NCBI GenBank assembly: GCA_045661205.1
Contig: JAZRFE010000018.1
Location: 65,523 to 129,522, forward strand
Length of the DNA: 64,000 bases
Reading direction: 5' to 3'
DNA from: Bacteroidaceae bacterium
Lineage (GTDB): Bacteria; Bacteroidota; Bacteroidia; Bacteroidales; Bacteroidaceae
This document shows, piece by piece, positions 3,280-37,912 of this stretch. The translations under genes were made by a program, and so were the position numbers. Numbering within the stretch: the stretch's first letter is position 1; each line of letters opens with the position of its first letter. Under the pieces are notes generated by a model. It had not been told where the DNA came from. It made no database searches and saw only the letters and a list, made by a program, of their open reading frames with translations.

Positions 3280-5853
3280 ATGAACAACCAATTTTCTAAA
3301 AATTTGTCCCGAATAATAACCTTCAGCAAAGAGGAAGCTTGTCGTCTGCGCTGCAAGAGCATCAGATCGGAGCATCTTTTGCTGGGTTTGTTGCGCGACA
3401 CAGATGGAAACGCAGCAAGCATACTCAGCAGTATGTCCGTAGACTTTGCGAAACTACGAGAGGATATTGATAAATTTTTCAACTCGGCGGATATTGCCAA
3501 CATGTCCGAAAAAGTGGAAGATGTGTCAAGCTTGGCTAATGATGAAAAAGCGCAGGATGCGTCGGATGTCGTTCTCGACGAGGATGCATCGAAAGTTTTA
3601 CGTTTTTGTATACTCGAAGCACGTATGTTAAAAAGTAATTTAGTTGATACAGAGCATCTTTTGCTCGCTATCTTGAAGGAAAAGAATAATAATGCGGCGG
3701 CAATTCTTGCCAAGAACGATGTCACCTATTCCGATGTTCGTGAGGCGTTGCAGATTAAGCCCGATGTGCGCGACGGCTTTGGCTTTACCGACGAAGATGA
3801 CGAAGAAGAGGATAATTCCGCATCGAGCGGACGTGGTTTCTCCGGCGCGCGTCAGGCATCGTCCGAGACACAGCAGAAACGTTCGTCGAACGACACTCCT
3901 GTACTCGACAATTTCGGCTTTGACATGACAAAGGCTGCCAAAGAGGGATTGCTCGACCCTGTCGTAGGTCGCGAAAAAGAGATAGAACGCATATCACAGG
4001 TTCTAAGTCGCAGAAAAAAGAACAACCCTGTGCTCATAGGTGAGCCAGGAGTGGGAAAATCTGCAATTGTCGAGGGGCTTGCCCAGCGCATTATACAGCG
4101 CAAAGTGTCGCGTGTGCTCTTTGACAAACGTATCGTGTCGCTTGACATGACTGCTGTTGTTGCAGGTACAAAATATCGCGGACAGTTTGAGGAGCGTCTG
4201 CGTGCGATACTCAACGAGCTCGAAAAGAACCCCAATATAATACTGTTCATTGACGAAATGCACACTATCGTAGGTGCAGGTTCTTCACCCGGCTCAATGG
4301 ATGCAGCAAACATTCTTAAGCCAGCTCTTGCGCGTGGACAGGTGCAGTGCATAGGTGCTACAACTCTCGATGAATACCGTAAGAGTATCGAAAAAGATGG
4401 TGCATTGGAGCGTCGTTTCCAAAAAGTTATCGTCGAGCCTACATCGGCCGATGACACTCTACATATTCTCATGAATATAAAGGAAAGATACGAAAACCAT
4501 CACAATGTAACATATACCGAAGAGGCTCTCAAGGCCTGCGTCACTTTGACCGAGAGATACATTACAGACAGATGCTTCCCCGACAAAGCCATCGATGCTA
4601 TGGATGAGGTGGGTGCACGTATGCACATGACAAATATATCTGTTCCTCGCGAGATTGAGGAGCAGGAGAAACTTGTCGAGGTTGCGCGCAGCGAGAAGCA
4701 CGAGGCTGTAAAATGTCAGGACTTTGAGCGAGCTGCCAACTATCGTGACTATGAGAAAAAGATGGAAGAGCGTCTCACCGAAATGAAAAACGAGTGGGAG
4801 AAAAGTATACGCAGCGAACGTCAGACAGTAGACGATCAGAAGGTTGCTGAAGTTGTATCAATGATTTCAGGCATTCCTGTACAGCGCATGCAACAGGATG
4901 AGTGGGCACGCTTGAGAACAATGAAGAGTGAACTCACAAGCAAGGTGGTTGCACAGGATGCCGCAATAGACAAACTCACAAAGGCCATTCTGCGTAGTCG
5001 TGTGGGATTGCAGAACCCCAACAAACCCATCGGTACATTTATGTTTCTGGGCCCCACAGGAGTGGGAAAAACATTGCTTGCAAAAGAGTTGGCACGGTTT
5101 ATGTTTGGCACCACTGATGCACTTGTACGCATCGACATGAGCGAGTATATGGAAAAATTCACAGTGTCGCGTCTTGTGGGAGCACCTCCGGGATACGTTG
5201 GTTACGATGAGGGTGGACAGCTTACCGAGCGCGTTCGTCGTCGCCCCTACTCTATTGTTCTTCTCGACGAGATAGAGAAGGCTCACACCGATGTGTTCAA
5301 CCTGCTGTTGCAAGTGATGGACGAGGGAAGACTCACCGACAGCTACGGACGCACGATAGATTTCCGCAATACAGTGATTATAATGACCTCGAACATCGGT
5401 ACACGCGAACTTAAGGATTTTGGTGCAGGAATAGGTTTTGCAAAGCACGAGAACAATGGCAATAAAGAGTATTCACGCGGAGTGATACAAAAGGCCTTGA
5501 ACAAACGTTTTGCGCCCGAGTTTATAAACCGTGTAGACGAGATTATAAACTTCGACCAGCTCGACCTTAACGCAATTATTAATATTGTGGATTTGGAGCT
5601 TGCTCAGGTGTTGAAGCGTACAAAGGAGATGGGTTATACACTATCATTGGATGCACCGGCAAAAGAGTTCCTTGCAAAGAAAGGCTACGATGTACAGTTT
5701 GGAGCGCGTCCTCTGAAGCGTGCTATTCAGAATTACATTGAAGATGAACTTTCCGAGCTTATCCTTTCCCAAACTATCGCTGCCGGTAATAACATAAGCG
5801 TTACAATCGATGCCGAAAATGACAAACTCTGTTTCACAGTTGTCAACGAATAG
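3280..5853 (+). CDS. clpC: ATP-dependent Clp protease ATP-binding subunit, ClpC type
   Basis: 857 aa with a duplicated Clp_N repeat (EHLLLGLL / EHLLLAIL). Two Walker A motifs ([16 protein letters not shown]), a UVR-like motif ([16 protein letters not shown]) and a ClpP-docking GIGF loop favour ClpC over ClpB. Confidence 0.9.
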
Positions 5854-8016: not shown

Positions 8017-8041
8017 TAAAATAGAACGTCAAATTATTTGG

Positions 8042-8076
8042 GCGCAGATTGTGTAACAGCAATCTGCGCTTTTTTT
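8042..8076 (+). terminator. rho-independent terminator after htpG
   Basis: Perfect 10-bp stem GCGCAGATTG / CAATCTGCGC, 8-nt loop, T7 run. Confidence 0.75.
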
Positions 8077-8207
8077 GTTGCATACTATTTGCCGATTTTA
8101 CACTCAATATGTAGCTATAACAATATGTGATGGCCCCAAAAGTATTAAGTGTTATTTCGGCAACCTTCCTCTGACGCTTTGTGACTTCTTTTGCAGTAAA
8201 AAACGCA

Positions 8208-9308
8208 ATGAGTAAGAACATTTTATTTAGTAACACAAGTTGGCGTTCCCATCTAATGCGTGAAACATCAGAACGTAGAACTGCCGACGAACAAAAAGAG
8301 GACAAATGCAACAAAGTAACCTCTTTCCAAACAACACCCGACCACGAGCATTATGCGAGTGAGAAACTGCTATTTGACAGCCTCCAGACGATAGTCGAAA
8401 GAATTGTTCAGGAGATAAACCGCGCCTACGAGTCGGAGAATTTTATCTACAACGAACTATTGAAAGAGAAATCCTTTGCCGAAGAGTGCGATGCGGCATT
8501 GAAGGCTGCAATAGAGAGTGAAGAGAAACGCGCGTCTGACGAGGAAAATGCAATCAAAAAAAGTCTTGGACAGTTACAGCAATTCGTCGAGTACAAAAAT
8601 CTTTTACAGCTTAATTCTCTTATCATGTATGGCTATTCGGCCATTGGTACAGGAGAAGCGGTTAATGCTGTACAAGTTTTCGCAGGATGTTACAACAGCA
8701 ATGGTGAACTTAAAGAGGATGCTTCGATACTTACTTCCATCTATCAGTTACCATTGGGACAGGCATACCGACTCAACTGTGATAAACTCGAAGATGATTC
8801 ATTGGCAAATATTTTGCTTTATGACAATGAGGGAAACATTTGTCCATTCACTCTTGAATTGAAAGATACGATATTTGTTCCCGACAGAGCAATTTCTCGT
8901 ATCGGCCTATCCTATAAAGGCACTGCACCAACAGTGGAGTCGTTTAATCTCGAAAACATAGTTGCTACTGTTGCCGATGGCACAGTAGACAGAAGCAAAC
9001 TATCCACCGAAATGCTCGAAGAGATTGCCAACATCGCACAATCGGTGATTAACGAAATGAAACGAGCAATAAATTCCGAGGAGAGTATTAAGAGCGAACT
9101 GCAAAATCAGGTATCATCTAATGCGGTTGCTTGTGAAAAGACACAGTCTCAACTCGAAAATGAGATTATACGTTCGACAGTGGTAGATAAAAACCTGCTC
9201 AATCGCGTCGAGAAGTTGGAAAGTAGATGTGTTGTGCTCAGCGAAACAGAATACAATTCCATAGAATACAAAAACAACGATACAATTTATTTTGTAATTG
9301 AGGAATAA
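8208..9308 (+). CDS. coiled-coil fibre-like protein (phage tail-fibre-like)
   Basis: The track ORF starts at a GTG (8181); the first ATG is at 8208 (MSKNILF...). N- and C-terminal heptad-rich helical segments flank a central non-helical domain. The C-terminal end SETEYNSIEYKNNDTIYFVIEE resembles endings common in phage fibre proteins. Confidence 0.5.
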   Translation: MSKNILFSNTSWRSHLMRETSERRTADEQKEDKCNKVTSFQTTPDHEHYASEKLLFDSLQTIVERIVQEINRAYESENFIYNELLKEKSFAEECDAALKAAIESEEKRASDEENAIKKSLGQLQQFVEYKNLLQLNSLIMYGYSAIGTGEAVNAVQVFAGCYNSNGELKEDASILTSIYQLPLGQAYRLNCDKLEDDSLANILLYDNEGNICPFTLELKDTIFVPDRAISRIGLSYKGTAPTVESFNLENIVATVADGTVDRSKLSTEMLEEIANIAQSVINEMKRAINSEESIKSELQNQVSSNAVACEKTQSQLENEIIRSTVVDKNLLNRVEKLESRCVVLSETEYNSIEYKNNDTIYFVIEE

Positions 9309-9310
9309 TC

Positions 9311-9484
9311 ATGGCAATATACAATTCAAATAAAGAGATAATATTCGTATCAGCAGGAAAAAGAGTCATTGCATTCATTGCAAAAGGGGCATCTATTATA
9401 TGGCAAGCGGTACGTAGTTGCTTTGGTGCAGGATGCTGGCGAGACGATAAATCGTGGAACGATAATGAGTGTTGGAAAGATTAA
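9311..9484 (+). CDS. small Cys/Trp-rich hypothetical protein (57 aa)
   Basis: Below the ORF-track size cutoff; translated by hand as MAIYNSNKEIIFVSAGKRVIAFIAKGASIIWQAVRSCFGAGCWRDDKSWNDNECWKD*. It starts 2 nt after the upstream stop and ends 19 nt before the likely start of the giant gene. Confidence 0.5.
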   Translation: MAIYNSNKEIIFVSAGKRVIAFIAKGASIIWQAVRSCFGAGCWRDDKSWNDNECWKD

Positions 9485-9503
9485 ACAAATAAAACAAAAT
9501 ATT

Positions 9504-12500
9504 ATGGCAAATTATAGCGAAAATCCGATATTGTCATCGGATGTAAATTGGAACGAGGAAGACCCTGCAAACGGTCTTTTGTGGTCAGGAAAATCTATCA
9601 GAGAGTTCCAACAAAAGAAAAACAAAGAGACAGAGATAAACACTGCAACAAAGGTGGGAGCATTGCATTTCGATGCTTCTACAATGACCCTTTATCAGTT
9701 TGCAAGCGAAGAGGCAAAAGAGTTATGGCTCAGTAACAACAACGAGGGATTGTTGCTGGGTGTTGTACCATTCAACTTCACAGGAACTCTCAACCAGATT
9801 AAAATTATCAACAATCTTGGCTCAACTAATCTTTATTACACAACTGAGAGCGAAGCTGTGGTTTTGAGTGTTGCTTTTCTTTCTCAACAAAAAAGCATCA
9901 CAGATGTTTCTTGGAGTGACGTGAACGAAGATTTTCGTGTTTCTGTAAGTGTAGACAGAGGCTCAAACGGCATTTATGAGACTATTATATCCGACCATTT
10001 GCTACTAAACGGTAAACTATTTACTGTCGATGTTAAGAAATATCTCGCCAATGGTGCCAATCGCGTAAAGATTTCGGTAAAAGGTGTGGACACAGGAATC
10101 AGCAAGAGTCTTGTTCTTACAGTAAACATCACTTCTATGTTTATCAGACCTGCCAATTTTACGTGGAATACTCCATTTATCGAGGGTAATATCTACCCTA
10201 TTGGAGGTATGAATATCGGTGGCAATCTGCAAAAACTCCTCAAAGTAAAAGTCAAAGGTAACAACTACGAAAAAAACTACACTGTTAATATTGGCTCGTC
10301 TACATACATTAACACTGCATACTACTATTCCGGAATGGAATTTCCCAGCATGGGCAGTGGCATCTATAACATTGAACTGTGGCTCGATGCTAACGGACTC
10401 GAAAGTGAGCATCTTAGCTATAATATCATCTGTGTTTCAAAAGCCGACGTAGCCACAGCGCAATTTGTAGCTCTAAACGAGATGAGTGATAGTGTACCTA
10501 ATGGTATTGAGAAAAACATTTTCGCCTACACTCTCTATAATAAGGGAGAGCAACAAAGCGACATAACAGTTCAAGTCGGTATTGATGGCCGCTTGCTTGT
10601 TGACGAAACACTCTACAATGTATCAACAGGCAGCAAAGTATACTACACAGCGGCAGTTGAATATGAAAGTGAAGCTGATAACCTTGAAGTAGATGTAACG
10701 GTAACAAACGGTAATACTGTCAATATCAAGAAACCATTGGATAACAGTGCGTTATACCCTGCCACAAAAGGTGCTACACTCTATATAAACGAGTCGAGAC
10801 GAAACAATACGCAGGCTAACAAAGAAAAATTTATTAATGAAGCCACAGGCGAAGAGATCAATGCAGTTTGGGAAAACTTTATTTTTGATACTGATGCCCA
10901 TGCTACCGACGATACAGGTAGAAAATGTCTCAATGTTCCCGCAGGCTCAAAAGTAACAATTGCAGCACAACCCCTTGCTAAATGGGGACGTGAAGGCAGT
11001 AAGACCATAGAGTTTGCATTCAAGGCGAGCAACGTCTCCAACTACAACGAGAACATCATCACCATAGCCAATGCCGACGGTAAAGGCATTCAAATCAAGC
11101 CCAAGAATGTACTTGTGCTCATGAGTGGTACAGCCAACAATAATACCCTTCAAAGTTACAACCTAAAAGACGAAGAATATGTTCATCTGCTCATCACCAT
11201 TGTCAAAGGTTATCAAAACTATGGCAACCTTTGTCAGATATACGTTAATGGTGTAAAAACCACCTCATTCGACTTCGGAAGCGAGAATTTCATCGTCTCC
11301 GCCAACATAGTTATTGGTTCATCTTCTGCCGATACTTATCTTTACAAACTGCGTGTCTATGAGCAGGGATTCGAGTGGGCTGCTGTCACCGACAACGTAG
11401 CAAACAGTCTCCCTACTCACGAAGAAAAAATAGCATACATAAATAATGTGAAATCCATCTTGGATACTAACTATAATGTAGACTACGATGCTGTTTACGG
11501 CAAACGTAATACGTTTGTCGTGGAGATGATTGATGGTGCCTCGTTCCCCGATAAACTTCACCCGGCAGGTGGTAAATGTAACACATGGATAAACATTGTA
11601 GACCGCATAGACGATGAGCTTGACGAGGAATTCAAACAACTCTTCAGTGGTGAATTAATCGCCAATCAAGAGATTGAAGGACAAGGAACAACTGCTATGA
11701 CCTATCTACGATGGAACACCCGTCAGAAATTAGGTGCAGAGTATGGCAAACGCAGAATAACTGCCAAAAAGAATGTTGCATCCTCTATGCACTCACATAA
11801 AATGGGTGCAACAAGAATGTTCAATGAACTTCACCATGCCATCGTTGGTGCAAACGAAGGTAATGGCCGAGTTGCTGTGTTTCAATATCCCGTTTATGGT
11901 TTCCAAAAGTTTACGGAAGGTACAACAACCACTTACCAATTTATCGGACTTTACACCATAGGTCCGGACAAAGGCGACAAAAAAACATTTGGATACGACA
12001 AGTACGAAGAGAGCATCATACATCTTGAGGGTGCCGACCACACCCCTCTGGGTGTTGGATTTGACTACCCATGGAGCGAACTTAAGTACAGTTCGGCAAA
12101 AGAATCACTCGGAGCTGTCAATACCAAAGGCGAAACAGTCTCGGCATGGGAGGTTGGTGCCGTCGGTAAACTTAGCACAGATAATGAGAGCGACGAAGCA
12201 GCTGTAAAGGCTGTGCTCAACACCGAGTTCCGCCCTGCCTATGACATTGTTTACAATTCCTCGACATTCATTAAAGGAATCACCTCTGAAGAGTATACCG
12301 AAATGACTGCCGACCCTATTGCATGGCGTAAAAAAGAGACTGTTGATGGAAAATCATATAGCGAACTTGAGTTCTATGTCGATGGAGAGTACGACCTATA
12401 TTACTACAATCTACAAGAAGGCAATTACAAAAAGAACGGCATAAACCTGCTTGCGCAGACAGGAGTGACATTTACTTCGGAAACACTTGCTCAAAAAGAT

Positions 12501-15062
12501 GAGAAGTTCAAAGCATGGCGCAAAACACATTTCAAAAATAACATGCAGAAATATTGGCATCTTCAAGATGCTCTATTTCATGATGCCCTACTCATCCTTA
12601 TAGGAGCATCCGACAACTTTAAGAAAAACAACTACCCTTATAAGTTCAAATCTCTTGCTGATGGCGGATTGTGGCAAAGAAGACAAGATGACCTCGATTC
12701 TATCTTCGACATCCTCAATCAGGGTTTTGCAGGAAAATCATACTCGGTACTCTTTGGTGACAAAAACAGCGGCGGAAGCATATTTCGTGGCGAAAACTCC
12801 GTATTCCACACTCTCATACAAGAGTGTTACCCCGAGGAGTTTAAAAAGATGATGCACAAAATCCTAGACAAGATGTCATCATTCTCCCCTTACGGTCAAG
12901 GAAGTATAGAGCGTCTCGTAGGTTACATAAAATCTCGTTTCTGGGATTATGCACAGGAGTATTTCCCCTCATCGGCCTACAACAAAGATGCAGAATGGAC
13001 ATACGAGGAGGCATGGAAACTTTGGGGTACACAATACACTGGTGCCGATGTGCATCCGCTTCAACAATCATTAGGTGCTCACTACGAGGCCGAAAGAGAT
13101 TGGGTAACATTGCGTATGCTATTCGTGGCATCGTACTACAACTGGGGAATATTCTCCTCGGGAAGCACCGATACATCCGAGGGACAGCTTACCTACCGTA
13201 CAGCCAGCGGAAAAACATTTACAATAACTCCGGCCATAGACTTTAATCCCACAATTCTTGTAGGTGATAGTGAGGTAAACTCGGCAGGCAGACGAATAAA
13301 TGCTGGCGAGCACGCAACTGTCATTGTTCGAGAAGTGGGAGCTAACGATACTCACGTCTATGTTCAGGGACTTGACTGGATAGCCGACCTCGGCGACCTA
13401 AGTGATTTGCAACTCGATGCCAACAATCCCGAATTGCTGATAGCCTCTAAGCGACTGAAAAGCCTGAAACTTGGTGGTGAGAGTACAGTAACCTCTAACT
13501 TAGGCAAGCTCAGTATAGGCAGTATGCCTTCACTCGAAGTAATAGATGCCCGCAATCTCGCAAACTTGTCGGGAGCAATCAACTTGCAAGGATGTCCAAG
13601 ACTAAAAACCGCTCTTTTTGCAGGAACAAACATAAGTTCAATATATCTTGCAGACGGTTCCAGAATAACCACCTTGCAGACAAGCGATAAGATGTCACAG
13701 TTGGTACTGAAAAACCTTCCACTGCTTACTGATGAAGGTTTTGAATTTACTGACGGAACAACTGTCGAATATTTGCGAATAGAAAATTGCAAGCATATAA
13801 ACGCGTTTGAACTTCTTAAGCAGTTGTACAACCTCGACAGTAAGAAACTCACTTCCATACGCGTTGTAAACTTCAATTATGTAGGAACTCGCGAAGACGT
13901 AACTATACTTATAAATCTTGCTAATAATATTGACAAAGATGGCAACTATAAAGAGTACAACGGTATCGATGCAAATGGCAATATCATTCCCGATGCTGAA
14001 GGCAGAAACTCTGTACCTGTGATAGAGGGCCGTATAGAGATTCCAAGTGCACTATATAGTGATGACATAGCCATTATTAACAATATGTACGAAGGCAAAT
14101 TGGCAATCATTTCCACTACCGGAACCTATTATGTCAAATTCGCCGACCCCGAAGTGCAGAGGATTTGTGTCGAGAATTGGGGCGATGGTACAGGTATCAC
14201 TTTGGAGCAAATAAAAAGTATAAGCAATATTGATAAAACTTTTTACAACAATACTCTCATCGAAACATTTGATGAATTAGGTAAGTTTACTTCGCTAACA
14301 AGTCTAAAGCCAACAGCTTTTAAAGGTTGTACTAATTTGAAAAGTATAGATATAAGCAACATTACTGTCTTTGGTTCTGAATGGCAGAACGGTCCATTTG
14401 AGGATACTGCGCTGGAAAGCGTGACTCTTGCCGAAGGTATGACCGAAACAGGTCAAAGACCTTTTATGAACTGCTCTAAACTGAAAAATGTGAAACTACC
14501 ATCAACGTTGATATATCTTGGAACAACCGAGTATGCTTATGGCAGCGGTGTATTTTATGGAACAGCAATAGAAGATATTGAACTACCAGCCCAACTACAA
14601 AGGATAGGCTCTAATGTGTTTTTTAAATGCCCGTTGAAAAGCATAAAATGTCCCAATACAGTGACCTACATAGGACAAAATGCGTTCCTGCGTTGTCCTT
14701 CACTAAAGGAAGTATATATGGGTGAGAATATCACCGAGATTAAGGCGAGTGTATTTGAGTATTGTACTGCATTGCGAACTGTGATAATAACTACAGTTGT
14801 CCCACCCACGGCTGGCAATAATATTTTTAGAGGTCTTACAAATTTTAATATATATGTGCCGAGTGAAAGTGTAAATGCTTATAAAGAAGCTACAAACTGG
14901 GTGAGTTATGCAAATCAAATTAAGCCTATCAATGTGGTATCTGTGCGACCGGGAATAGAAAAAGTCTCCGAAGGTGACCTCTATAAAGTGGGTAACATCT
15001 ATTGGAAAGCCGCTAATGGTCAAGACTTGTTGGAATGGGTAGAAATTTTTAATTTAGGATAA
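9504..15062 (+). CDS. giant multidomain protein: Ig-like repeats, LamG-like, CotH-like, LRR and BspA-type LRR
   Basis: The track ORF 9369..15062 overlaps the small ORF; the likely start is ATG 9504 (MANYSENPIL, about 1,852 aa). No signal peptide and no T9SS-like C-terminal domain are recognisable. A LamG-like segment lies at about 10900..11375 (IGSSSADTYLYKLRVY). A CotH-like segment lies at about 11500..13150 (IEGQGTTAMTYLRWNTRQKL; NNYPYKF...LWQRRQDDLDSIF). LRRs run from about 13370, and BspA/LRR_5-type repeats lie at about 14318..14930. Confidence 0.75.
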   Translation: MANYSENPILSSDVNWNEEDPANGLLWSGKSIREFQQKKNKETEINTATKVGALHFDASTMTLYQFASEEAKELWLSNNNEGLLLGVVPFNFTGTLNQIKIINNLGSTNLYYTTESEAVVLSVAFLSQQKSITDVSWSDVNEDFRVSVSVDRGSNGIYETIISDHLLLNGKLFTVDVKKYLANGANRVKISVKGVDTGISKSLVLTVNITSMFIRPANFTWNTPFIEGNIYPIGGMNIGGNLQKLLKVKVKGNNYEKNYTVNIGSSTYINTAYYYSGMEFPSMGSGIYNIELWLDANGLESEHLSYNIICVSKADVATAQFVALNEMSDSVPNGIEKNIFAYTLYNKGEQQSDITVQVGIDGRLLVDETLYNVSTGSKVYYTAAVEYESEADNLEVDVTVTNGNTVNIKKPLDNSALYPATKGATLYINESRRNNTQANKEKFINEATGEEINAVWENFIFDTDAHATDDTGRKCLNVPAGSKVTIAAQPLAKWGREGSKTIEFAFKASNVSNYNENIITIANADGKGIQIKPKNVLVLMSGTANNNTLQSYNLKDEEYVHLLITIVKGYQNYGNLCQIYVNGVKTTSFDFGSENFIVSANIVIGSSSADTYLYKLRVYEQGFEWAAVTDNVANSLPTHEEKIAYINNVKSILDTNYNVDYDAVYGKRNTFVVEMIDGASFPDKLHPAGGKCNTWINIVDRIDDELDEEFKQLFSGELIANQEIEGQGTTAMTYLRWNTRQKLGAEYGKRRITAKKNVASSMHSHKMGATRMFNELHHAIVGANEGNGRVAVFQYPVYGFQKFTEGTTTTYQFIGLYTIGPDKGDKKTFGYDKYEESIIHLEGADHTPLGVGFDYPWSELKYSSAKESLGAVNTKGETVSAWEVGAVGKLSTDNESDEAAVKAVLNTEFRPAYDIVYNSSTFIKGITSEEYTEMTADPIAWRKKETVDGKSYSELEFYVDGEYDLYYYNLQEGNYKKNGINLLAQTGVTFTSETLAQKDEKFKAWRKTHFKNNMQKYWHLQDALFHDALLILIGASDNFKKNNYPYKFKSLADGGLWQRRQDDLDSIFDILNQGFAGKSYSVLFGDKNSGGSIFRGENSVFHTLIQECYPEEFKKMMHKILDKMSSFSPYGQGSIERLVGYIKSRFWDYAQEYFPSSAYNKDAEWTYEEAWKLWGTQYTGADVHPLQQSLGAHYEAERDWVTLRMLFVASYYNWGIFSSGSTDTSEGQLTYRTASGKTFTITPAIDFNPTILVGDSEVNSAGRRINAGEHATVIVREVGANDTHVYVQGLDWIADLGDLSDLQLDANNPELLIASKRLKSLKLGGESTVTSNLGKLSIGSMPSLEVIDARNLANLSGAINLQGCPRLKTALFAGTNISSIYLADGSRITTLQTSDKMSQLVLKNLPLLTDEGFEFTDGTTVEYLRIENCKHINAFELLKQLYNLDSKKLTSIRVVNFNYVGTREDVTILINLANNIDKDGNYKEYNGIDANGNIIPDAEGRNSVPVIEGRIEIPSALYSDDIAIINNMYEGKLAIISTTGTYYVKFADPEVQRICVENWGDGTGITLEQIKSISNIDKTFYNNTLIETFDELGKFTSLTSLKPTAFKGCTNLKSIDISNITVFGSEWQNGPFEDTALESVTLAEGMTETGQRPFMNCSKLKNVKLPSTLIYLGTTEYAYGSGVFYGTAIEDIELPAQLQRIGSNVFFKCPLKSIKCPNTVTYIGQNAFLRCPSLKEVYMGENITEIKASVFEYCTALRTVIITTVVPPTAGNNIFRGLTNFNIYVPSESVNAYKEATNWVSYANQIKPINVVSVRPGIEKVSEGDLYKVGNIYWKAANGQDLLEWVEIFNLG

Positions 15063-15063
15063 T

Positions 15064-15267
15064 ATGGATATAAGGGAAGAAAATGGCATTACAATAATTA
15101 CTGCCGAAAATGGAAAAGTGTTACAGAGGATAAGTGACGGTGTGTTATTCGGAGACGAGGTGTGGCTTGGTAAGGCATTCACAATAGGAGGAAAGAGACT
15201 TAAGACCCCTATGCAAGAGCTACCCGAACATTTTACCGAAATTGATAATAGCGATGACCATGAATGA
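15064..15267 (+). CDS. small hypothetical protein (67 aa)
   Basis: ATG lies 1 nt after the giant gene stop. It occupies the position of the small ORFs usually found between fibre and holin genes in phages. Confidence 0.5.
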   Translation: MDIREENGITIITAENGKVLQRISDGVLFGDEVWLGKAFTIGGKRLKTPMQELPEHFTEIDNSDDHE

Positions 15268-15745
15268 TTTTATTACTTTCATTAAAGCTACCATCATTGG
15301 ACTTTTGTCGGAAATTCTTGCCTTTTTTGCGCCTATCGAGAGCAATTTTATAGCCCTCGTATGGCTCTTTGGTATGAACTTTGTGTTTGGTCTTTTGAGT
15401 GACGTGCTGCGAGGTAAGGATTTCTCCATGCGCAAGGCGATAACCTGCATTACACATGCGGCAATGTTTTTTGCGTTGTGTGCATCACTCTATGGCATTG
15501 GCTATTTTCAGAACTTATGCGAGGAGATGCTCAACCAATGCGTGTCGTCGTTCTGTTGGATTTTAGTATATTGTTACTCTACAAACATTGTAAGAAATGT
15601 ACGTACTATTTTGCGCAGTGAAACACCTGCATATAGAACACTTGACCTACTCTACAATGGCTTGACTCTTGCATTTGTAAGGACTCTGCCGTTTATTGCT
15701 GAAATTCTGAAACAGAGAAAGGAGGAACGCCATGCAAACAAGTGA
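15242..15745 (+). CDS. holin-like membrane protein
   Basis: 167 aa (the start may be M5 or M7, at 15254 or 15260). It has about four hydrophobic helices and a charged C-terminal tail (KQRKEERHANK). It sits immediately upstream of the endolysin and overlaps it. Confidence 0.6.
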   Translation: MIIAMTMNDFITFIKATIIGLLSEILAFFAPIESNFIALVWLFGMNFVFGLLSDVLRGKDFSMRKAITCITHAAMFFALCASLYGIGYFQNLCEEMLNQCVSSFCWILVYCYSTNIVRNVRTILRSETPAYRTLDLLYNGLTLAFVRTLPFIAEILKQRKEERHANK

Positions 15746-16190
15746 TATTGGATTGAGGTGTATAATTGCCTTCGAGGGTATGGAATTGAATGCCTACAAG
15801 TGTCCTGGCGGAGTATGGACCATAGGCATAGGACATACAGGAGATGTAGATGGTGTGCCCATAAGCAAGGGAATGCTAATTACAAAGGCCGATGCAATGG
15901 AACTGTTACGAGAGGATGTTAAGCGCATAGAGCGTTATCTGAATCGTCAGCCATTTGTTGGGCGTTTGACACAAGGCATGTTCGACGCACTGGTGAGCTT
16001 TATATTTAATGTGGGTACATCAGCTTTTGAAACCTCGACAATGAGAAAGCAACTGTGCATAAACGCTACAAGCGATGAAATAGTCAAAGAGTTTCATAAA
16101 TGGGTTTATGGCACCGTGAACGGTAAAAAGAAGAAACTCGATGGGCTTGTGAGACGTCGCAAGCACGAAGCTGCCATGTTCATCAATTAA
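15732..16190 (+). CDS. GH24 phage-type lysozyme (endolysin)
   Basis: 152 aa. Contains FEGMELNAYKCPGGVWTIGIGH, which matches the E-x8-(D/C)-x5-T catalytic pattern of T4/lambdoid lysozymes. Confidence 0.88.
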   Translation: MQTSDIGLRCIIAFEGMELNAYKCPGGVWTIGIGHTGDVDGVPISKGMLITKADAMELLREDVKRIERYLNRQPFVGRLTQGMFDALVSFIFNVGTSAFETSTMRKQLCINATSDEIVKEFHKWVYGTVNGKKKKLDGLVRRRKHEAAMFIN

Positions 16191-16192
16191 GT

Positions 16193-16585
16193 TTGCACAA
16201 AGCAATGCAAAAAGTATTGTTCTCTACTATAATTCTGATGCTTTTTTGTAGTTGTACTACTTCGGGTTATCTGCCTGTTGAGAGCGTCAGGGTGGATAGC
16301 ATCTTCGTATGCAAGGTTGAACGCGACAGTATCTACGAGCGCGACAGTGTGTTTGTTGCCGTAAAGGCAGACACGGTTTTTCTCACAAAAGTTCAGTATC
16401 GCTATCGCGATAGATGTGTACGTGACACAGTGAGTGTTTTGTGTTGCGATACTGTTACAAATGTTTTTCAAGTGGAGAAAAGCCTCACTTTTTGGGAGCA
16501 TATGAAACTACTGTTGGGAGAGATTGTCATGTGGGGCTCTCCTTTGCTTATTGGGCTGATGATTATTGCTCGCAAGCTATTCTGA
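16193..16585 (+). CDS. unimolecular-spanin-like lipoprotein
   Basis: 130 aa. It has an N-terminal lipoprotein signal (ILMLFCSC), a predicted beta-rich middle and a C-terminal TM helix (GSPLLIGLMIIARKLF). It starts 2 nt after the endolysin stop. Confidence 0.55.
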   Translation: MHKAMQKVLFSTIILMLFCSCTTSGYLPVESVRVDSIFVCKVERDSIYERDSVFVAVKADTVFLTKVQYRYRDRCVRDTVSVLCCDTVTNVFQVEKSLTFWEHMKLLLGEIVMWGSPLLIGLMIIARKLF

Positions 16586-16592
16586 AAAGAGT

Positions 16593-16630
16593 AAATCCTG
16601 TCTATTCGTAGAAATAGACAGGATTTTTCT
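16593..16630 (+). terminator. strong hairpin terminator between convergent genes
   Basis: Perfect 14-bp stem AAATCCTGTCTATT / AATAGACAGGATTT (16593..16606 / 16613..16626), 6-nt loop, T-rich tail. Confidence 0.8.
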
Positions 16631-32029: not shown

Positions 32030-32662
32030 TCAAAGATTAGATATTTTTACAACAACATCATACATGGCGAGAATCTCATCCTTTCTCACTGTAAACGCCG
32101 GATAGTTGGGCGAAGTGCACACAAGTACATCTTTGTCGTCGGTCGATGTGGAACAGTGTTTAATAAAACGCGAGTCATGTGTAACAATCATATACACCCT
32201 ATCTACGTTCACCGTTGCGAACGGGTCCATCTTATTAACTCCAATAATGTCCCCGGGATTTATTTCGGGTTGCATGGATGTTCCCACCACCGGAAAAAAG
32301 AAATCGGCTTTCATTCCCGGAATGCTTACAAATGTATCGGGCGTTTCGCATTCATCATTCATCGCATCACGCATACCGGCACTGACAGTGATTGAATTAT
32401 AGTATGGAGAAACATTCTGAAGATATTCTGACGGAGAATCATCTTCTTTGTACATATTGCCATTGCCATTTAAAATCCACTCGATTGACACCTCGGGGAA
32501 ACATTTGTTAATGGCACGTATCAGTTCCATTGACACACTTCCCGCCTCATTTAGTTGCCTGTTTAGAGTGCGCTGAGGAATCTCAAGCACGACACTTGCT
32601 CTGCTCACGTTAAGATTGTTATCAGCCAATAGAATCAATATACGTTTTTTTATATTCTCCAT
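32030..32662 (-). CDS. CI/LexA-type repressor (HTH plus S24 peptidase)
   Basis: 210 aa. It has an N-terminal HTH (VSRASVVLEIPQRTLNRQL), the S24 catalytic Ser motif GTSMQP and a downstream Lys in RFIKH. Confidence 0.85.
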   Translation of the reverse strand: MENIKKRILILLADNNLNVSRASVVLEIPQRTLNRQLNEAGSVSMELIRAINKCFPEVSIEWILNGNGNMYKEDDSPSEYLQNVSPYYNSITVSAGMRDAMNDECETPDTFVSIPGMKADFFFPVVGTSMQPEINPGDIIGVNKMDPFATVNVDRVYMIVTHDSRFIKHCSTSTDDKDVLVCTSPNYPAFTVRKDEILAMYDVVVKISNL

Positions 32663-32926: not shown

Positions 32927-33304
32927 ATGAGCGAAAAAGAATTATGCAAAAAGGTCTCACAAAGTGAGCGACTAATTGAAAAATGTCTCGAATGGTATGA
33001 ATATTTGTATTACAAATTTTTCAGAAGAGAAAAGACGTGGTGCAGCCATCTTGTCGAGTACTACTGTATACACAGGAATTTTCATGAACAAAAGTTCGTT
33101 CAAGACTTTCTAGAAGAGCGTAAAGGAATTCTTTCCAATAATCGCCATCGCATGGTCGTAAATGTCATCCCCGATATTCCGGACACATGCGAAGTGGGCA
33201 AAGTGATGCTTTACAGCAAAGGCAAATATATTCACGAAGCAACATTAAAAATAAGAAAACCTTTAACAGAAAACAATATCGTTTTCTGGTCGTTCGATAA
33301 ATGA
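32927..33304 (+). CDS. hypothetical protein in the Cro/antirepressor position
   Basis: 125 aa. Transcribed divergently from the repressor. No motif was recognised. Confidence 0.45.
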   Translation: MSEKELCKKVSQSERLIEKCLEWYEYLYYKFFRREKTWCSHLVEYYCIHRNFHEQKFVQDFLEERKGILSNNRHRMVVNVIPDIPDTCEVGKVMLYSKGKYIHEATLKIRKPLTENNIVFWSFDK

Positions 33305-33385: not shown

Positions 33386-33814
33386 CTATTCTCTATCAAT
33401 CTTTCTTCTTGAGTACAACAGTTCGTTAATTGCCGAAGCTGTGCTGTTGTTCAATGAGCGTAAAAGCATTGCCGAGTCGGGTTTGACATTGTCAAGCCAA
33501 CGTGCAGTCAGCGCAGTCTCTACATAGTTACATGCAAGAAGCTGTAAAGAATCGGCCTGAGCATCATCCCAGTTGCTCGGCAATGCCAACAAAAATTCAA
33601 CACTATCGTCGGTAGCCGACATACGCGCAAAAGGCAACATTAATTGCAACAACTCATCTATGGCTGCAAGCCACAAAGGTTCTACCCTCTCATTGTCGTC
33701 ATCACAATATGCAATCGCCAGATTATTCTCATTTTTCAAAGCAAGGAGAGCCGTCTGACGTTTCATCCCATCGAAAATCTTATTTTTATCTATACAAATA
33801 TTCATATAAAGCAA
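33386..33814 (-). CDS. head-completion/connector-like protein, paralog 1
   Basis: 142 aa or less (alternative starts at M4 and M17). It shares a C-terminal motif with ORFs 39100 and 39617 (Y-[LV]-V..W[LI]...P[DA]...EL). Confidence 0.5.
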   Translation of the reverse strand: MLYMNICIDKNKIFDGMKRQTALLALKNENNLAIAYCDDDNERVEPLWLAAIDELLQLMLPFARMSATDDSVEFLLALPSNWDDAQADSLQLLACNYVETALTARWLDNVKPDSAMLLRSLNNSTASAINELLYSRRKIDRE

Positions 33815-33919: not shown

Positions 33920-34201
33920 TCAACCTTCGAGTATTTTTACAAGTTGAAACTCACTGCGACAGCACAACTTTATAAAGAGTCCGCTCAACACGCCGAGTAA
34001 AGTAATCTCACACTTCTCTTCGTCGATGCCGAAGTCATCGTGAAACAGATATTCTTCCTCGCCATCGATACTTGCAAAAACCTCCACAGGATAAGGCCCT
34101 GCCTTATGTACTCTCACTCTTATGTCCCCTCCAAGAGATTTTATAGGAACCGTTTCCCATACATCGCCATTCTTGGCAAATGAAATATTCACAACAGCCA
34201 T
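33920..34201 (-). CDS. small hypothetical structural-module protein
   Basis: 93 aa. It starts 4 nt after the upstream stop. Confidence 0.45.
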   Translation of the reverse strand: MAVVNISFAKNGDVWETVPIKSLGGDIRVRVHKAGPYPVEVFASIDGEEEYLFHDDFGIDEEKCEITLLGVLSGLFIKLCCRSEFQLVKILEG

Positions 34202-34205
34202 ATAA

Positions 34206-34838
34206 CTACTTGTTATTGTTACACAAAGCGGCAGCCAGACTCATGAAGGCATTCGCCGCATCATATTTCTCAAACACATTACACACAAGTCCTGCACACT
34301 GATAGGCAACAGCTTGCAATAGAGAATCGTTATTCGATGCAAGCCCCTTGCTGCTATTATAGGTACCCTCGTAGAGTAAATACTCCACAGTGGGTATCGA
34401 ATCCTCTTCAACAGGATAAACATAAAGCAGTATCCCCTGGGCGGACGGCACCTCTATACAAACAGGAGATGATTTTCCCGCGCGTGTGTATTTGTTTGCT
34501 TGCGCAGCGTCTGCCACTGAGCCCGGAGAGGAAACATTGTAACATGGGTGTAGCCAATTATCCAACTTAAACGAAACGAGTCTGACATAATCCTCAGGTA
34601 ATATAATCACACCATATTCACCATTCCAAAGAGAGAGATTGCAGTTTGCCATACTCTTCCCATTCAACATGCCACTCTTTTTATTCATCTGAACAAAAAG
34701 CACAGCCTCGGGAAGCAGCTCCGAAATATATTTATCAAGCAACAATGTGTCGTCGGTAATAAGCGAAATGCTATTCTCGCTCTGCGCTTCGTTGAGCAGT
34801 GTGCGCACCTTCTCTTTAAGTACACTATCGGCCATCAT
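34206..34838 (-). CDS. head-tail connector/adaptor-like protein
   Basis: About 210 aa. The ATG at 34838 forms an ATGA overlap with the upstream stop. It sits two genes downstream of the capsid gene. Confidence 0.45.
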   Translation of the reverse strand: MMADSVLKEKVRTLLNEAQSENSISLITDDTLLLDKYISELLPEAVLFVQMNKKSGMLNGKSMANCNLSLWNGEYGVIILPEDYVRLVSFKLDNWLHPCYNVSSPGSVADAAQANKYTRAGKSSPVCIEVPSAQGILLYVYPVEEDSIPTVEYLLYEGTYNSSKGLASNNDSLLQAVAYQCAGLVCNVFEKYDAANAFMSLAAALCNNNK

Positions 34839-35341
34839 AACCAATTAGGGAACGAAATGCGCAATTCATCTGCTTTGGCACGAACAGCCCCTTTATTCTG
34901 AAGTTCCGAAAGAGAAACCTTATAAGGCTCACCCATCAGCACACTACGCGCCTGCTGTACGTTGGTCACATTTACAAAGACCTCCTGTTTGCAATTCTCA
35001 TCGACAGGAGCGGCCTCGGCAACCGACTCTTTTTCTTCAATTTTTTCAGTGGAACCTATCACTATCTCACCGTTGCGAAACTGCTCACTCTCCTCTATGG
35101 CCTTCTGGTAAAGAGGGTTGTCGGTGACATAATTTGCAGGAGTCATTCCCGCCGAATTGATTGAACCACCTGTAAAGTCCACACGCAACAGAGCCTTTCC
35201 CACTCTGAAATAGCAACTGCGCTCTATCTGCCCTCTAATCTCGTAAGTAACTTTTCTTTTCATAAACCAAATAACTTTTCTTAAAATGCGTCGCAGTCTG
35301 TAAGTTGCATATTTGTGTGCATTCCCCACAAACTGCGACAC
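34835..35341 (-). CDS. hypothetical head-associated protein
   Basis: 168 aa (alternative start M27 at 35263, MKRKVTYEIRG). It has an acidic middle and a C-terminal helix-extension-helix-like segment (VSLSELQNKGAVRAKADELRISFPNW). Confidence 0.45.
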   Translation of the reverse strand: MSQFVGNAHKYATYRLRRILRKVIWFMKRKVTYEIRGQIERSCYFRVGKALLRVDFTGGSINSAGMTPANYVTDNPLYQKAIEESEQFRNGEIVIGSTEKIEEKESVAEAAPVDENCKQEVFVNVTNVQQARSVLMGEPYKVSLSELQNKGAVRAKADELRISFPNWL

Positions 35342-37809: not shown

Positions 37810-37912
37810 ACAATTGATATTTATTTGTTTCGTCGGCAAAGTAAAGGCTGAATGCAAAGTTTAAGGTTGCAGAATTAACACTTTGAGAATTGCAGTCCAT
37901 CATTTTGGGCAC

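Follow-up and report, generated by a model that had tools for sequence, protein, structure and literature searches.

The lysis cassettes of known type 10 secretion systems are chromosomal, vertically inherited and under purifying selection. Some phages of Gram-negative hosts have lysis cassettes whose spanin is unimolecular (phage T1 gp11 type), and domesticated lysis or fibre genes standing apart from head-tail genes are found with the Rhodobacter capsulatus gene transfer agent and in the Pseudomonas pyocin lysis cassette. In the type 10 system of Yersinia entomophaga (holin, endolysin and spanin), lysis of a subpopulation frees large Tc toxins (PMC10847048). Benler et al. 2021 (PMC8008677) noted CotH domains in phage genomes as unstudied, and diversity-generating retroelements act on BS-TP4 gp14 and BS-TP1 gp27 (PMC12694917). 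Among the papers searched, the only one to contain both 'T10SS' and 'Bacteroidota' deals with the prediction of type 9 secretion.

The seven-gene cassette examined here lies within a 64,000-nucleotide stretch of a Bacteroidaceae genome (the window). As in type 10 systems (Serratia ChiWXYZ; Yersinia entomophaga, PMC10847048), a chromosomal holin, endolysin and spanin stand outside a prophage, the candidate cargo has no signal sequence, and release by lysis would be the expected outcome. Type 10 systems have an inner and outer spanin pair, whereas a single spanin of the unimolecular type is present here; furthermore, the candidate cargo is a phage fibre and a CotH/LRR giant protein missing in most relatives, the phylum is Bacteroidota, no regulator was identified and export is a prediction. 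The T1 gp11-type cassettes share with this locus a holin-like protein, a GH24 muramidase (E-x8-C-x5-T), a lipoprotein with a C-terminal membrane helix, and genes that overlap or abut, but here the set has become a fixed, vertically inherited part of a bacterial chromosome, its spanin matches no Pfam or PHROG family and the one Pfam match of its holin falls short of the curated cut-off. Likeness to the R. capsulatus agent and the pyocin cassette lies in phage-derived lysis genes kept by host-level selection away from a complete virion set; unlike in those systems, no cognate particle cluster is shown here, and the head-like island present in the window has no recognisable portal or tail genes.

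The earlier note on this DNA had described seven genes in one tight operon between two terminators, and this was borne out by the ORF positions, gaps and boundary hairpins (Table 1). Seven co-oriented ORFs on the + strand occupy positions 8208-16585 with intergenic gaps of -14 to +19 nt. The left hairpin is kept in aligned relatives (L024, L026, L029). As the full scan found 8 terminator-like sites against 7.6 expected in shuffles, the hairpins are backed by their position, not their number. Housekeeping genes (gyrA, clpB and htpG) form the left flank, with htpG 191 nt upstream of the cassette; on the right, a 4HBT thioesterase gene begins 62 nt downstream, and beta-lactamase-like, GH2, DEAD helicase, LptF/G, Tgt, Lon and PanB genes are also present.

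Table 1. Positions in the window of the cassette genes, their boundary elements and two genes of a second phage-derived island (island 2).
Feature	Position	Strand	Evidence
Terminator-like hairpin 3' of htpG, left operon boundary	8040..8071	+	13-pair stem, 6 G-C pairs, then T run
Putative promoter and 5' leader block of lysis cassette, conserved (ATTTCGGCAACC ... TTCTTTTGCAGTAAAAAA)	8150..8207	+	Alignment with relatives
g1, full-length phage fibre-like protein of 366 aa	8208..9308	+	Homologues, shared N-terminus
g2, 57-aa protein accompanying giant gene in phages	9311..9484	+	tblastn
g3, giant protein, 1852 aa, no signal sequence	9504..15062	+	Pfam, PHROG, AlphaFold2/Foldseek
g4, 67-aa protein following giant gene in phages	15064..15267	+	Identity to phage loci
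g5, holin-like membrane protein, 161 aa	15260..15745	+	Hydrophobic segments, PHROG, synteny
g6, GH24 (T4 or lambda type) muramidase	15732..16190	+	PF00959, E 1e-37; phrog_7 endolysin, E 1.5e-54
g7, spanin-like, one-piece (unimolecular) type	16205..16585	+	N-terminal lipoprotein signal, C-terminal membrane helix
Right-boundary hairpin between convergent g7 and 4HBT thioesterase genes	16593..16626	.	15-pair stem
Capsid-like gene, island 2	35362-36981		phrog_26635
Large terminase, island 2	40087-42117		phrog_2

The arrangement htpG, holin, lysozyme, spanin recurs in L024/25, L026-28 and L029-33, five looked-up contig sets that represent three lineages of the genus besides that of the window. In the window and in L029/L030, where the spanin-4HBT junction is also syntenic, the lysis genes are bounded by htpG and the 4HBT thioesterase gene; in the other sampled relatives they lie directly 3' of htpG. 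DNA identity with relatives is 81-83% in the flanks and 71% in the three lysis genes, whose identity matrices follow that of HtpG. In the closest pair, dS of the lysis genes is 0.02-0.07 compared with 0.06 for htpG, and dN/dS is 0.03-0.26 for most pairs (0.04, 0.08 and 0.18 for the three genes of L026 against L029). These ratios show purifying selection on the three lysis genes, which co-diverge with the chromosome in every sampled relative lineage. Judged by this synteny and divergence, the lysis cassette is chromosomal, vertically inherited and fixed in the genus. A further (fifth) htpG-linked lineage may be represented by an 8,235-bp contig, to which P0124, P0217 and P0288 were assigned by matching size. 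Genes g1-g4 are absent from all of L024-L033. The relatives L024-L033 hold the lysis trio and not the seven-gene form, which is seen in one genome only, given that each of g1, g3 and g7 clusters with no other sequence among about 15 billion proteins. The new result of these comparisons concerns the three lysis genes.

Position, several hydrophobic segments and a Pfam Phage_holin_4_1 match below the curated cut-off mark g5 as holin-like; it also matches phrog_15037 (E 1e-11), and alignment with all relatives favours its start at 15260 over 15242. It shares 83-85% identity with its syntenic counterparts in L024, L026 and L029 and with the gene of phage contig L009. The putative muramidase g6 shares with L024, L026, L029 and L033 the spacing E15-x8-C24-x5-T30, which we take to be the GH24 catalytic motif. 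In g7, for which Pfam and PHROG gave no family match, hydrophobic segments span residues 4-23 and 102-125; the lipobox is an atypical FCSC in the window and canonical (VGGC, FAAC, LVGC) in relatives. Identity of g7 to syntenic genes is 54-61%, with dN/dS of 0.06-0.26 across distant pairs.

The block at 8150-8207, which abuts the g1 start codon in the window, has an aligned counterpart in L024, L026 and L029, directly 5' of their holin genes. The local alignment scores 5 SD over shuffles, the observed score being reached by at least 1 in 500 shuffles. A single copy of its motif TTYTTTGCARDAAAA is present in every htpG-linked locus (L024-L033), and none of the 74 other loci fetched has one. The block presumably acts as a promoter, and g1-g4 fit exactly between it and the holin gene.

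Phage contig L009 has five of the seven genes in the same order: g2, g3, g4, holin and lysozyme, with product identities of 58, 65, 55, 84 and 78%, respectively. The order in L009 is an SU10-like capsid protein (PF17236, E 2e-25; phrog_26635, E 2e-183), proteins of 143, 214 and 737 aa, g2, the giant, g4, an 81-aa protein, holin and lysozyme; its DNA identity to Bacteroides phages BKO1-TP3 and BS-TP4 is 70-71%. On this collinearity, the seven-gene cassette is of phage origin. The fibre, small ORF, giant, small ORF, holin, lysozyme order is thus common to L009 and the window. In BS-TP4 a 2645-aa giant follows capsid, 167-aa and 212-aa genes, whereas no head, portal or tail gene is contiguous here, and the cassette instead has host housekeeping flanks and a host-lineage promoter block on its 5' side. 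The housekeeping genes on both sides place the cassette outside any prophage. No flanking direct repeats and no tRNA genes were found, and no scanned ORF matched an integrase family. The conservative view, which sees here the end of a tailed phage that serves adsorption and lysis, therefore describes the origin of the locus and not its present state. The idea that such genes are always embedded in complete prophages in relatives fits the giant protein and fails for the lysis genes, which are chromosomal and follow htpG.

Among the genes 5' of the holin, g1 has homologues P0138 (59% identity, 350 aa) and P0139 (66%). Its start is taken as native since its N-terminus MSKNILFSNTSWRSHL is common to P0139, P0144 and P0147. 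Residues 28-65 match a short motif that recurs in numerous long proteins whose annotation is unknown, residues 341-364 match Pfam Phage_tail_C weakly (E 0.004, below the curated cut-off), and the C-terminus is weakly similar to the C-termini of proteins encoded directly 5' of g2 in L005, L006, L007 and L009. Matches to g2 (tblastn, 38-58% identity) lie directly 5' of the giant gene in L005, L006, L007, L009, L012, L016, L019 and L021. Those to g4 (38-61% identity) lie directly 3' of it in L004-L009 and L012, and about 1.9 kb further downstream in L002. The g4 and holin genes overlap by 8 nt.

The giant protein g3, like g1, is full length relative to its homologues, and its 313 homologues at E <= 1e-10 argue against a chance ORF. 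It consists of a conserved, uncharacterised N-terminal part (aa 1-700), a middle part, and LRR repeats in its C-terminal third (aa ~1300-1852); Pfam matches are LRR_5 (E 3e-33) and LRR_8, and PHROG matches are 24896 (E 4e-92) and 14959 (E 5e-43). Pfam gave no CotH hit for g3 itself. An AlphaFold2 model of aa 701-1300 (pLDDT 84.7, pTM 0.89) was compared with the PDB by Foldseek, and the best matches were the Bacillus cereus CotH kinase structures 5JD9 and 5JDA (E 3e-5, probability 1.0, TM-score 0.55-0.58 normalised to target); the fold is shared at a sequence identity of 9%. The best viral structural matches were LRR or CotH proteins of gut phages. This region is therefore predicted to have a CotH-kinase-like fold, in agreement with the earlier description of the protein as LRR/CotH-like. 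The description of the giant and fibre-like proteins as signal-less also stood: g1, g2, g3 and g4 have no hydrophobic segment, and a Pfam search of the cassette ORFs gave no match to a type 9 secretion C-terminal domain. As with CotH domains in phage genomes, that of g3 forms one part of a large phage protein with several domains. In contrast to CotH-family phage proteins with a hypervariable C-type lectin, in g3 the fusion is to LRR repeats. It also differs from the retroelement targets BS-TP4 gp14 and BS-TP1 gp27 in that its C-terminus is a BspA-type LRR and no scanned ORF matched a reverse-transcriptase family. All g3 relatives with readable surroundings are in a phage or prophage structural module, 3' of tape-measure, baseplate or capsid genes (BS-TP1, NatCom_3357, BS-TP4, L006-L008, L011, L012), and outside the window the family was met in phage genomes only.

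The reading that we prefer, at about an even chance of being correct, is that the last part of a late operon, from an old prophage of the BS-TP4/L009 type of Bacteroides phages, has become fixed in the chromosome at this locus, in two layers. The first (15260-16585) would be a lysis cassette taken over by the host, and the second (8208-15267) an adsorption-apparatus block from the same type of phage, most likely present in the common ancestor, deleted independently elsewhere and whole only in the window's genome among those sampled. When the promoter fires, the signal-less fibre and giant proteins would be made together with the lysis proteins; the holin would open the inner membrane, the muramidase cut the wall and the spanin break the outer membrane. 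The burst would then free the cytoplasmic content, including g1 and g3, by the mechanism of type 10 secretion. Release of the giant protein by such lysis is mechanistically plausible; co-transcription of the seven genes, activity of the lysis proteins and escape of g1 and g3 are steps that we infer.

The g1-g4 block was probably ancestral and lost repeatedly, since one further genome appears to keep a 58-codon g1 stub ahead of its lysis genes. A 2,250-bp NCBI contig seems to hold the stub P0159 (58 aa), holin P0219 (84%) and spanin P0356 (64%), which were placed together by shared source and contig size; g1 would be ancestral on the strength of this size match. The contig leaves no room for g2-g4 (5.9 kb). 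The P0219 holin groups with the L024 lineage, itself a clean deletion, suggesting independent deletions.

A fairly unlikely alternative is a true type-10-secretion-like system, with g1-g4 as selected cargo freed by a lysing subpopulation and the CotH-kinase/LRR giant and fibre acting outside the cell as adhesin, kinase or bacteriocin-like factor. Its one real support is the vertically inherited chromosomal lysis cassette, outside any prophage and under purifying selection. The Y. entomophaga precedent (PMC10847048) and cargo genes without signal sequence in the same operon and under the same promoter as the lysis genes also favour it, and if g1 is ancestral, an 1852-codon ORF intact across a divergence with saturated synonymous sites would imply selection. 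However, the cargo is absent in 3 of 3 sampled relative lineages and a stub in another, so that it appears dispensable wherever the lysis cassette is kept; the phage setting of the g3 relatives also argues against selected cargo, and no regulator gene adjoins the cassette.

Rather less probable is a recent arrival of g1-g4 from an L009-like phage, by recombination through the holin and lysozyme genes, the block being intact because it is young and the lysis genes old. The L009 holin and lysozyme are similar enough for homologous exchange. The window and L024 each resemble the L009 copies of both genes a little more than they resemble one another, so exchange with phages may have taken place. 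The absence of g1-g4 from relatives and the single-member clusters of g1 and g3 agree with late arrival. On the other hand, the left junction coincides with the native start codon of g1, the chromosomal promoter lying immediately before it, the g1 stub is seemingly in the same place in a second genome, a sliding-window comparison shows no recombination breakpoint, and the closest known phage copy of g3 has no more than 65% identity.

The earlier statement that no capsid or tail genes are nearby holds for the cassette's immediate neighbours and fails for the window, where a second phage-derived island at 32-42 kb, 15 to 25 kb downstream, contains capsid-like, terminase and several more phage-family genes. 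It is very doubtful that the cassette supplies fibres and lysis in trans to a gene transfer agent-like or satellite-like element with heads elsewhere, e.g. in this island. In favour, the island has no lysis genes, whereas its metagenome relatives hold their own holin and spanin between a 212-aa gene and a repressor-like pair; PHROGs 26635 and 22135 are common to the island and the L009 head genes; and the giant gene lies downstream of capsid and ~212-aa genes in BS-TP4, L008, L009 and L011 (directly after the ~212-aa gene in BS-TP4, one or two genes later in L008 and L009). Against it, the window has no recognisable portal, tail or integrase gene, and the island keeps the native gene order of its own element family, so that an inversion did not part it from the cassette. 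Nothing links regulation of the two, and the lysis trio also occurs in relatives that may or may not have island 2.

That the locus is the 3' end of an intact, inducible prophage was rejected as next to impossible, since despite its late-operon gene order it lacks an integrase, attachment repeats and any adjoining head or tail gene, and its close housekeeping flanks are syntenic with relatives.

Values of GC3 are 0.31-0.41 in g1-g4, 0.44-0.46 in the three lysis genes and mostly 0.42-0.53 in host genes, and the lower values of g1-g4 fit a later arrival. Without selection, an ORF of 5.6 kb would soon be interrupted; as that of g3 is still open, a mere leftover and an ancestral block fit together poorly unless g1-g4 have been selected or refreshed by recombination.

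The most solid new result of the analysis was a host-adopted phage lysis cassette beside htpG that is conserved across the genus. In the window, its three genes (g5-g7) are part of a cluster of seven plus-strand ORFs with gaps of -14 to +19 nt, bearing out the tight spacing described in the earlier note, and the two bounding terminators proposed there correspond to hairpins on either side. The absence of secretion signals from the putative cargo was likewise upheld: g1-g4 contain no hydrophobic segment, and no type 9 secretion C-terminal domain was found in them. The cluster is flanked upstream by gyrA, clpB, and htpG, and downstream by genes for a 4HBT thioesterase, a beta-lactamase-like protein, GH2, a DEAD helicase, LptF/G, Tgt, Lon, PanB, RsmG, and others. 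Among the scanned ORFs, no head, portal, tail, replication, or integration genes were contiguous with the cassette. Since the flanks are housekeeping genes, no tRNA genes occur in the window, and an attachment-repeat check at the boundaries detected no flanking repeats, the cassette lies outside any prophage. The observation in the earlier note is largely upheld. The conservative reading of the cluster as the end of a tailed phage stands for its origin, which is established as phage, but not for its present state, as an intact prophage is refuted by the housekeeping flanks. Similarly, the statement that no capsid genes lie nearby holds for genes contiguous with the cassette but not for the window, which carries a second phage-derived stretch at 32-42 kb (island 2). 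An Rfam scan of the window returned zero RNA families, g1-g7 matched no PADLOC defence-system family, and a sigma-70-type promoter scan was uninformative for Bacteroidales. In the upstream flank, the longest form of the ClpB ORF (window 3280-5853) is 857 aa, while the called genes are 830 aa in most relatives and 842 aa in the related locus L027; translation probably begins some 27 codons further in than 3280.

Features of the cassette and of island 2, in window coordinates
Feature	Coordinates	Strand	Product and remarks
Hairpin and T run after htpG	8040-8071
g1, fibre-like	8208-9308	+	366 aa
g2, small ORF	9311-9484	+	57 aa
g3, giant protein	9504-15062	+	1852 aa
g4, small ORF	15064-15267	+	67 aa
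g5, holin-like	15260-15745	+	161 aa; start 15260 set by alignment with relatives
g6, GH24 muramidase	15732-16190	+	152 aa
g7, lipoprotein with C-terminal membrane helix	16205-16585	+	126 aa
15-pair hairpin between g7 and convergent thioesterase gene	16593-16626
S24 peptidase, repressor-like	32030-32662	-	210 aa
i125, no match	32927-33304	+	125 aa
No match	33386-33814	-	142 aa
ORF	33920-34201	-	93 aa
phrog_22135	34206-34844	-	212 aa
No match	34835-35341	-	168 aa
phrog_26635, capsid-like	35362-36981	-	539 aa
phrog_22323	37012-37857	-	281 aa
No family match	38056-38484	-	142 aa; GC3 0.27 versus 0.42-0.53 in neighbours
ORF	38653-39093	+	146 aa
phrog_19255	39100-39612	+	170 aa
phrog_19255	39617-40090	+	157 aa
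phrog_2, large terminase	40087-42117	+	676 aa

The g5 product has several hydrophobic segments within its 161 aa, its gene overlaps g6 by 14 nt, and it matched phrog_15037 (E 1e-11). Against the holin family PF05105, with a curated cut-off of 22.2 bits, the window copy scored 17.6 bits and the copy in L024, an htpG-linked locus of a relative, 21.0 bits. The g6 product matched PF00959 (E 1e-37), and its E15-x8-C24-x5-T30 spacing was kept in all copies from all five lineages. We take E-x8-C-x5-T to be the catalytic motif of the GH24 endolysin, and the motif of g6 is predicted to be intact. No Pfam or PHROG family model matched g7, which has the architecture of a unimolecular spanin (lipobox and C-terminal membrane helix). 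Its lipobox (window 16205-16260) reads FCSC versus VGGC, FAAC, or LVGC in relatives, and this atypical form could reflect relaxed constraint on the window's copy. IMG/VR scans with the holin (single protein and alignment) and with g1 yielded no relatives. Exact-match searches with the window's giant protein and thioesterase retrieved no recorded contig.

Clustered at 90% identity, the window HtpG groups with proteins from metagenome-assembled genomes of Bacteroidaceae or Bacteroidales, 58 in all; three further members of this cluster were examined for locus context. Downstream of the htpG encoding P0125 (L024, L025, and 22 similar places) are genes for a 161-aa protein, a Phage_lysozyme, and a 124-aa protein, followed by an inserted block, 4HBT, and the beta-lactamase-like gene. 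The same three lysis genes follow htpG at the loci of P0126 (L026-L028, including GCA_017547585.1) and P0136 (L029-L033), and in L029 and L030 4HBT comes immediately after the spanin gene, which is also the arrangement of the window. The lysis cassette is chromosomal, non-prophage, and syntenic in these three other lineages. Of the seven-gene cassette whose recurrence in other genomes the earlier note proposed to check, the three lysis genes are found throughout L024-L033, and g1-g4 are absent there.

Between the window and L024, DNA identity was 81-83% in the flanks and 71% in the three lysis genes, and window 8080-15259 had no counterpart. Protein identity was 84% for the holin, 70% for the lysozyme, 54% for the spanin, and 95% for HtpG, with dS in the flanking genes saturated (>1.2). 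Across loci, the identity matrices of the three lysis proteins follow that of HtpG. Values of dN/dS for the lysis genes were 0.03-0.26 in most pairs (0.04, 0.08, and 0.18 for L026 versus L029), and sliding-window identity revealed no recombination breakpoint across the three genes. In the closest pair, L029 versus L033, the lysis-gene dS of 0.02-0.07 matches the htpG dS of 0.06, which argues for vertical descent under purifying selection. The cassette is thus maintained by selection in the host lineage. Searches for relatives gave 58 holin clusters at 67-86% identity and, with the spanin, a list of 151 proteins; a source was named for few of them, in each case a Bacteroidaceae or Bacteroidales genome assembled from metagenomes. 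Several holin/spanin pairs derived from equal-sized contigs, and at one such length (8,235 bp) an HtpG of the cluster is encoded as well.

The stretch behind the cassette is an insertion hotspot, given a 5.5-kb block between the spanin and 4HBT genes in L024 (L024:13600-19100) and L025. This block contains genes for an ECF sigma factor and a 3-keto-disaccharide hydrolase, umuC-like and umuD-like genes, and two small ORFs. Beyond 4HBT in L029 (L029:11365-19120), a KAP NTPase gene and a run of small unknown ORFs stand where the window has its beta-lactamase-like and GH2 genes.

Judged by its homologues, the giant protein g3 is a phage protein. It matched LRR_5 (E 3e-33), PHROG 24896 (E 4e-92), and PHROG 14959 (E 5e-43) and, among phage records, MT835639 (29% identity over 92% of its length), gp27 of Bacteroides phage BS-TP1, and phage NatCom_3357. 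A total of 313 homologues were recovered, and every genomic context examined was phage-like, e.g. a PhageMin_Tail (tape-measure-type) gene in L006, a crAss-type capsid gene in L007, and P22-type portal, terminase-like, and capsid-like genes in L008. In L011, an Alistipes contig, terminase-like and 212-like genes lie upstream and a lysozyme gene downstream, and in L012, a Prevotella isolate, the homologue is flanked by a tail fibre gene (phrog_22546, E 5e-239) on one side and a tape measure gene on the other. The BS-TP1 homologue follows tape measure, baseplate hub, and tail fibre genes and two small ORFs, and the order in NatCom_3357 is tape measure, Dit, 800-aa protein, two small ORFs, giant, 179-aa protein, holin, endolysin. 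In most phage-like loci examined, g2 and g4 accompany the giant gene. The closest homologue (65% identity) is encoded on the phage contig L009, with the order SU10-like capsid protein, 143 aa, 214 aa, 737 aa, g2, giant, g4, 81 aa, holin, lysozyme; its holin and lysozyme are 84% and 78% identical to those of the window, and its DNA is 70-71% identical to Bacteroides phages BKO1-TP3 and BS-TP4. In BS-TP4, the portal gene is followed on the opposite strand by terminase-like, rhomboid-like, and small genes; the order then runs 263-aa gene, capsid, 167 aa, 212 aa, 2645-aa giant, with an endolysin gene farther along. The paper on these phages reports BS-TP1 gp27 and BS-TP4 gp14 as targets of diversity-generating retroelements and describes such targets as unannotated proteins of ~2000 aa (PMC12694917). 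Of the marks of a giant protein targeted in this way, a nearby reverse transcriptase and template repeat and a variable C-type lectin end, the scanned ORFs of the window showed no match to a reverse-transcriptase family, and g3 ends in LRR_5.

The earlier description of g3 as LRR/CotH-like agrees with its LRR_5 match and with a structural model of aa 701-1300. An AlphaFold2 model from 86 aligned homologues reached a pLDDT of 84.7 and a pTM of 0.89; an 8-sequence alignment gave a pLDDT of 49, too poor for use. In Foldseek searches, the only significant PDB matches were the Bacillus cereus CotH kinase structures 5JD9 and 5JDA (E 3e-5 and 8e-5, probability 1.0, TM-score to target 0.55-0.58), and the best viral matches were LRR or CotH proteins of uncultured gut phages, Bacillus phage G gp353, and a crAss-like phage. 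The modelled region is predicted to adopt a CotH-like kinase fold. At E <= 0.01 PF08757 did not match g3, a precomputed match existed for 7 of the 120 listed homologues, and a sequence search of solved structures returned LRR matches to the C-terminus and none to aa 701-1300. The invariant motifs ATDNFKKNxYPYK and RQDDLD are candidates only for the catalytic site, with D1037, N1042, D1063, and D1065 as candidate residues. CotH-family kinase domains in phage genomes have been noted as unstudied (Benler et al., PMC8008677), and the window places one of these gut-phage giants where study apart from the virion is possible.

The 130-nt stretch preceding g1 can be aligned to the sequence ahead of the holin gene in L024, L026, and L029 (local alignment 5 SD above shuffles), with shared blocks ATTC-GCAAAC and TTCTTTGCAGTAAAA ending 6-10 nt before the start codon. 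The motif TTYTTTGCARDAAAA occurred once per htpG-linked locus and in 0 of 74 other loci. As the g1 N-terminus (MSKNILFS.T.W..HL) is common to the homologues P0139, P0144, and P0147, the g1 start is considered native; taken with the shared upstream block, this places g1-g4 exactly between the putative promoter block and the holin start codon. The common N-terminus led to rejection of a holin 5' remnant at the g1 start and, with the equal length of homologue P0138, of g1 as a shortened fibre.

An ancestral position of g1-g4 at this locus is somewhat favoured over recent arrival, which remains a serious contender. Recent arrival is consistent with a GC3 of 0.31-0.41 in g1-g4, compared to 0.44-0.46 in the three lysis genes and mostly 0.42-0.53 in host genes, with the single-member clusters formed by g1 and by g3, and with the window's copies resembling those of phage L009 slightly more than the syntenic ones. 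It is countered by P0159, an apparent g1 stub ahead of lysis genes in a second genome. In this 58-aa protein from a 2,250-bp NCBI contig, a promoter-like stretch (...LYFLLQKKS) is read through into MSKNILFSDTCWRSHLMRETTERKSADELKEDKSN, followed by a stop. Holin P0219 (84% identity) and spanin P0356 (64%), each a single-member cluster, also derive from an NCBI contig of 2,250 bp. Such a contig is too small for g2-g4, so the g1 stub most likely sits directly ahead of the lysis trio. The L024 lineage, with which P0219 groups, has a clean deletion, implying that deletion occurred independently at least twice. Were g1-g4 ancestral, an ORF of 5.6 kb kept intact in g3 would imply selection or refreshment by recombination with phages, which keeps the cargo reading alive. 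The ancestral phage adsorption genes of the cassette would then survive in the window's genome. An NCBI contig of 48,251 bp is the apparent common source of P0147, a 505-aa fibre with the g1-type N-terminus, and P0248, a holin of the g5 family (75% identity), probably representing a second fibre-plus-lysis arrangement in another genome.

Host-adopted phage lysis cassettes are known mainly from Proteobacteria and Clostridia, in type 10 secretion, pyocin lysis, and toxin release. By comparative evidence, such a cassette is fixed, vertically inherited, and under purifying selection in a group of gut or rumen Bacteroidaceae, and in at least one genome it remains joined to phage adsorption genes with which it probably arrived. 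In the proposed mechanism, a single transcript would run from the conserved promoter block to the hairpin at 16593, and the holin, muramidase, and spanin would burst the cell, setting free cytoplasmic proteins including g1 and g3. Release by lysis works in this way in type 10 secretion (PMC10847048). The window shares with type 10 systems a chromosomal, non-prophage lysis cassette under host-lineage selection, but signal-less cargo linked to the cassette across relatives, a feature of those systems, is lacking, as g1-g4 are absent from L024-L033. Decisive for membership in that class would be cargo release that depends on the cassette, with expression in a subpopulation. While the comparisons establish the gene content, ancestry, synteny, and selection of the cassette, the type-10-like reading is a mechanistically plausible hypothesis. 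We consider it rather unlikely, though possible, that this is a genus-old phage operon under one host promoter, in which lysis by g5-g7 releases signal-less g3 and g1, and that most lineages dropped the cargo and kept the cassette for another use. If true, Bacteroidota would gain their first type-10-secretion-like system, in which a phage adsorption protein has become extracellular cargo; among the papers searched, the only one naming both T10SS and Bacteroidota concerned type 9 secretion prediction. The window offers a defined locus and putative promoter at which to study why Bacteroidales retain the means of self-lysis, for which vesicle or public-goods release, phage-like particle release, and protein export are possible uses.

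Island 2 is flanked by host genes (AhpC-like and glycine transporter) and contains no integrase, lysis genes, or recognisable portal or tail gene. A metagenome scan with its capsid-like protein yielded 50 loci, many of which represent a compact element. This element starts with an integrase gene, followed by terminase and three small genes on one strand; on the other strand are 281-aa-like, capsid-like, 168-like, 212-like, and sometimes 93-like genes. Next come genes for a holin with 32-38% identity to g5, a spanin-like protein, and a 986-aa protein, and finally the i125/S24 repressor-like pair. The window copy keeps this order but lacks the integrase, lysis genes, and 986-aa gene, which makes island 2 an immobilised relic of its own rather than the cassette's other half. 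A single inversion (8.1-33.3 kb) splitting one prophage was rejected, as island 2, including i125/S24, is collinear with many metagenomic elements. With respect to a gene-transfer-agent-like dispersed system, which would have a complete head-tail gene set conserved in relatives, capsid-like and terminase genes were present at 34-42 kb, and no portal or tail gene was recognised in the window. One metagenome (contigs JAEIGA01..., loci L041-L069, with L051:1300-20500 examined in detail) was rich in compact elements, whose 986-aa protein is phrog_32516 and whose mapped part of ~13 kb held no recognised portal or tail gene; these are possibly temperate phages of small size, or else satellites of BS-TP4-like phages that encode a capsid. 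Beyond island 2, window 43300-44619 encodes a 439-aa fusion of ADP-ribosylglycohydrolase and dual-specificity phosphatase domains (PF03747 plus PF22784/PF22785), the phosphatase domain being of a kind found in polymorphic toxin systems.
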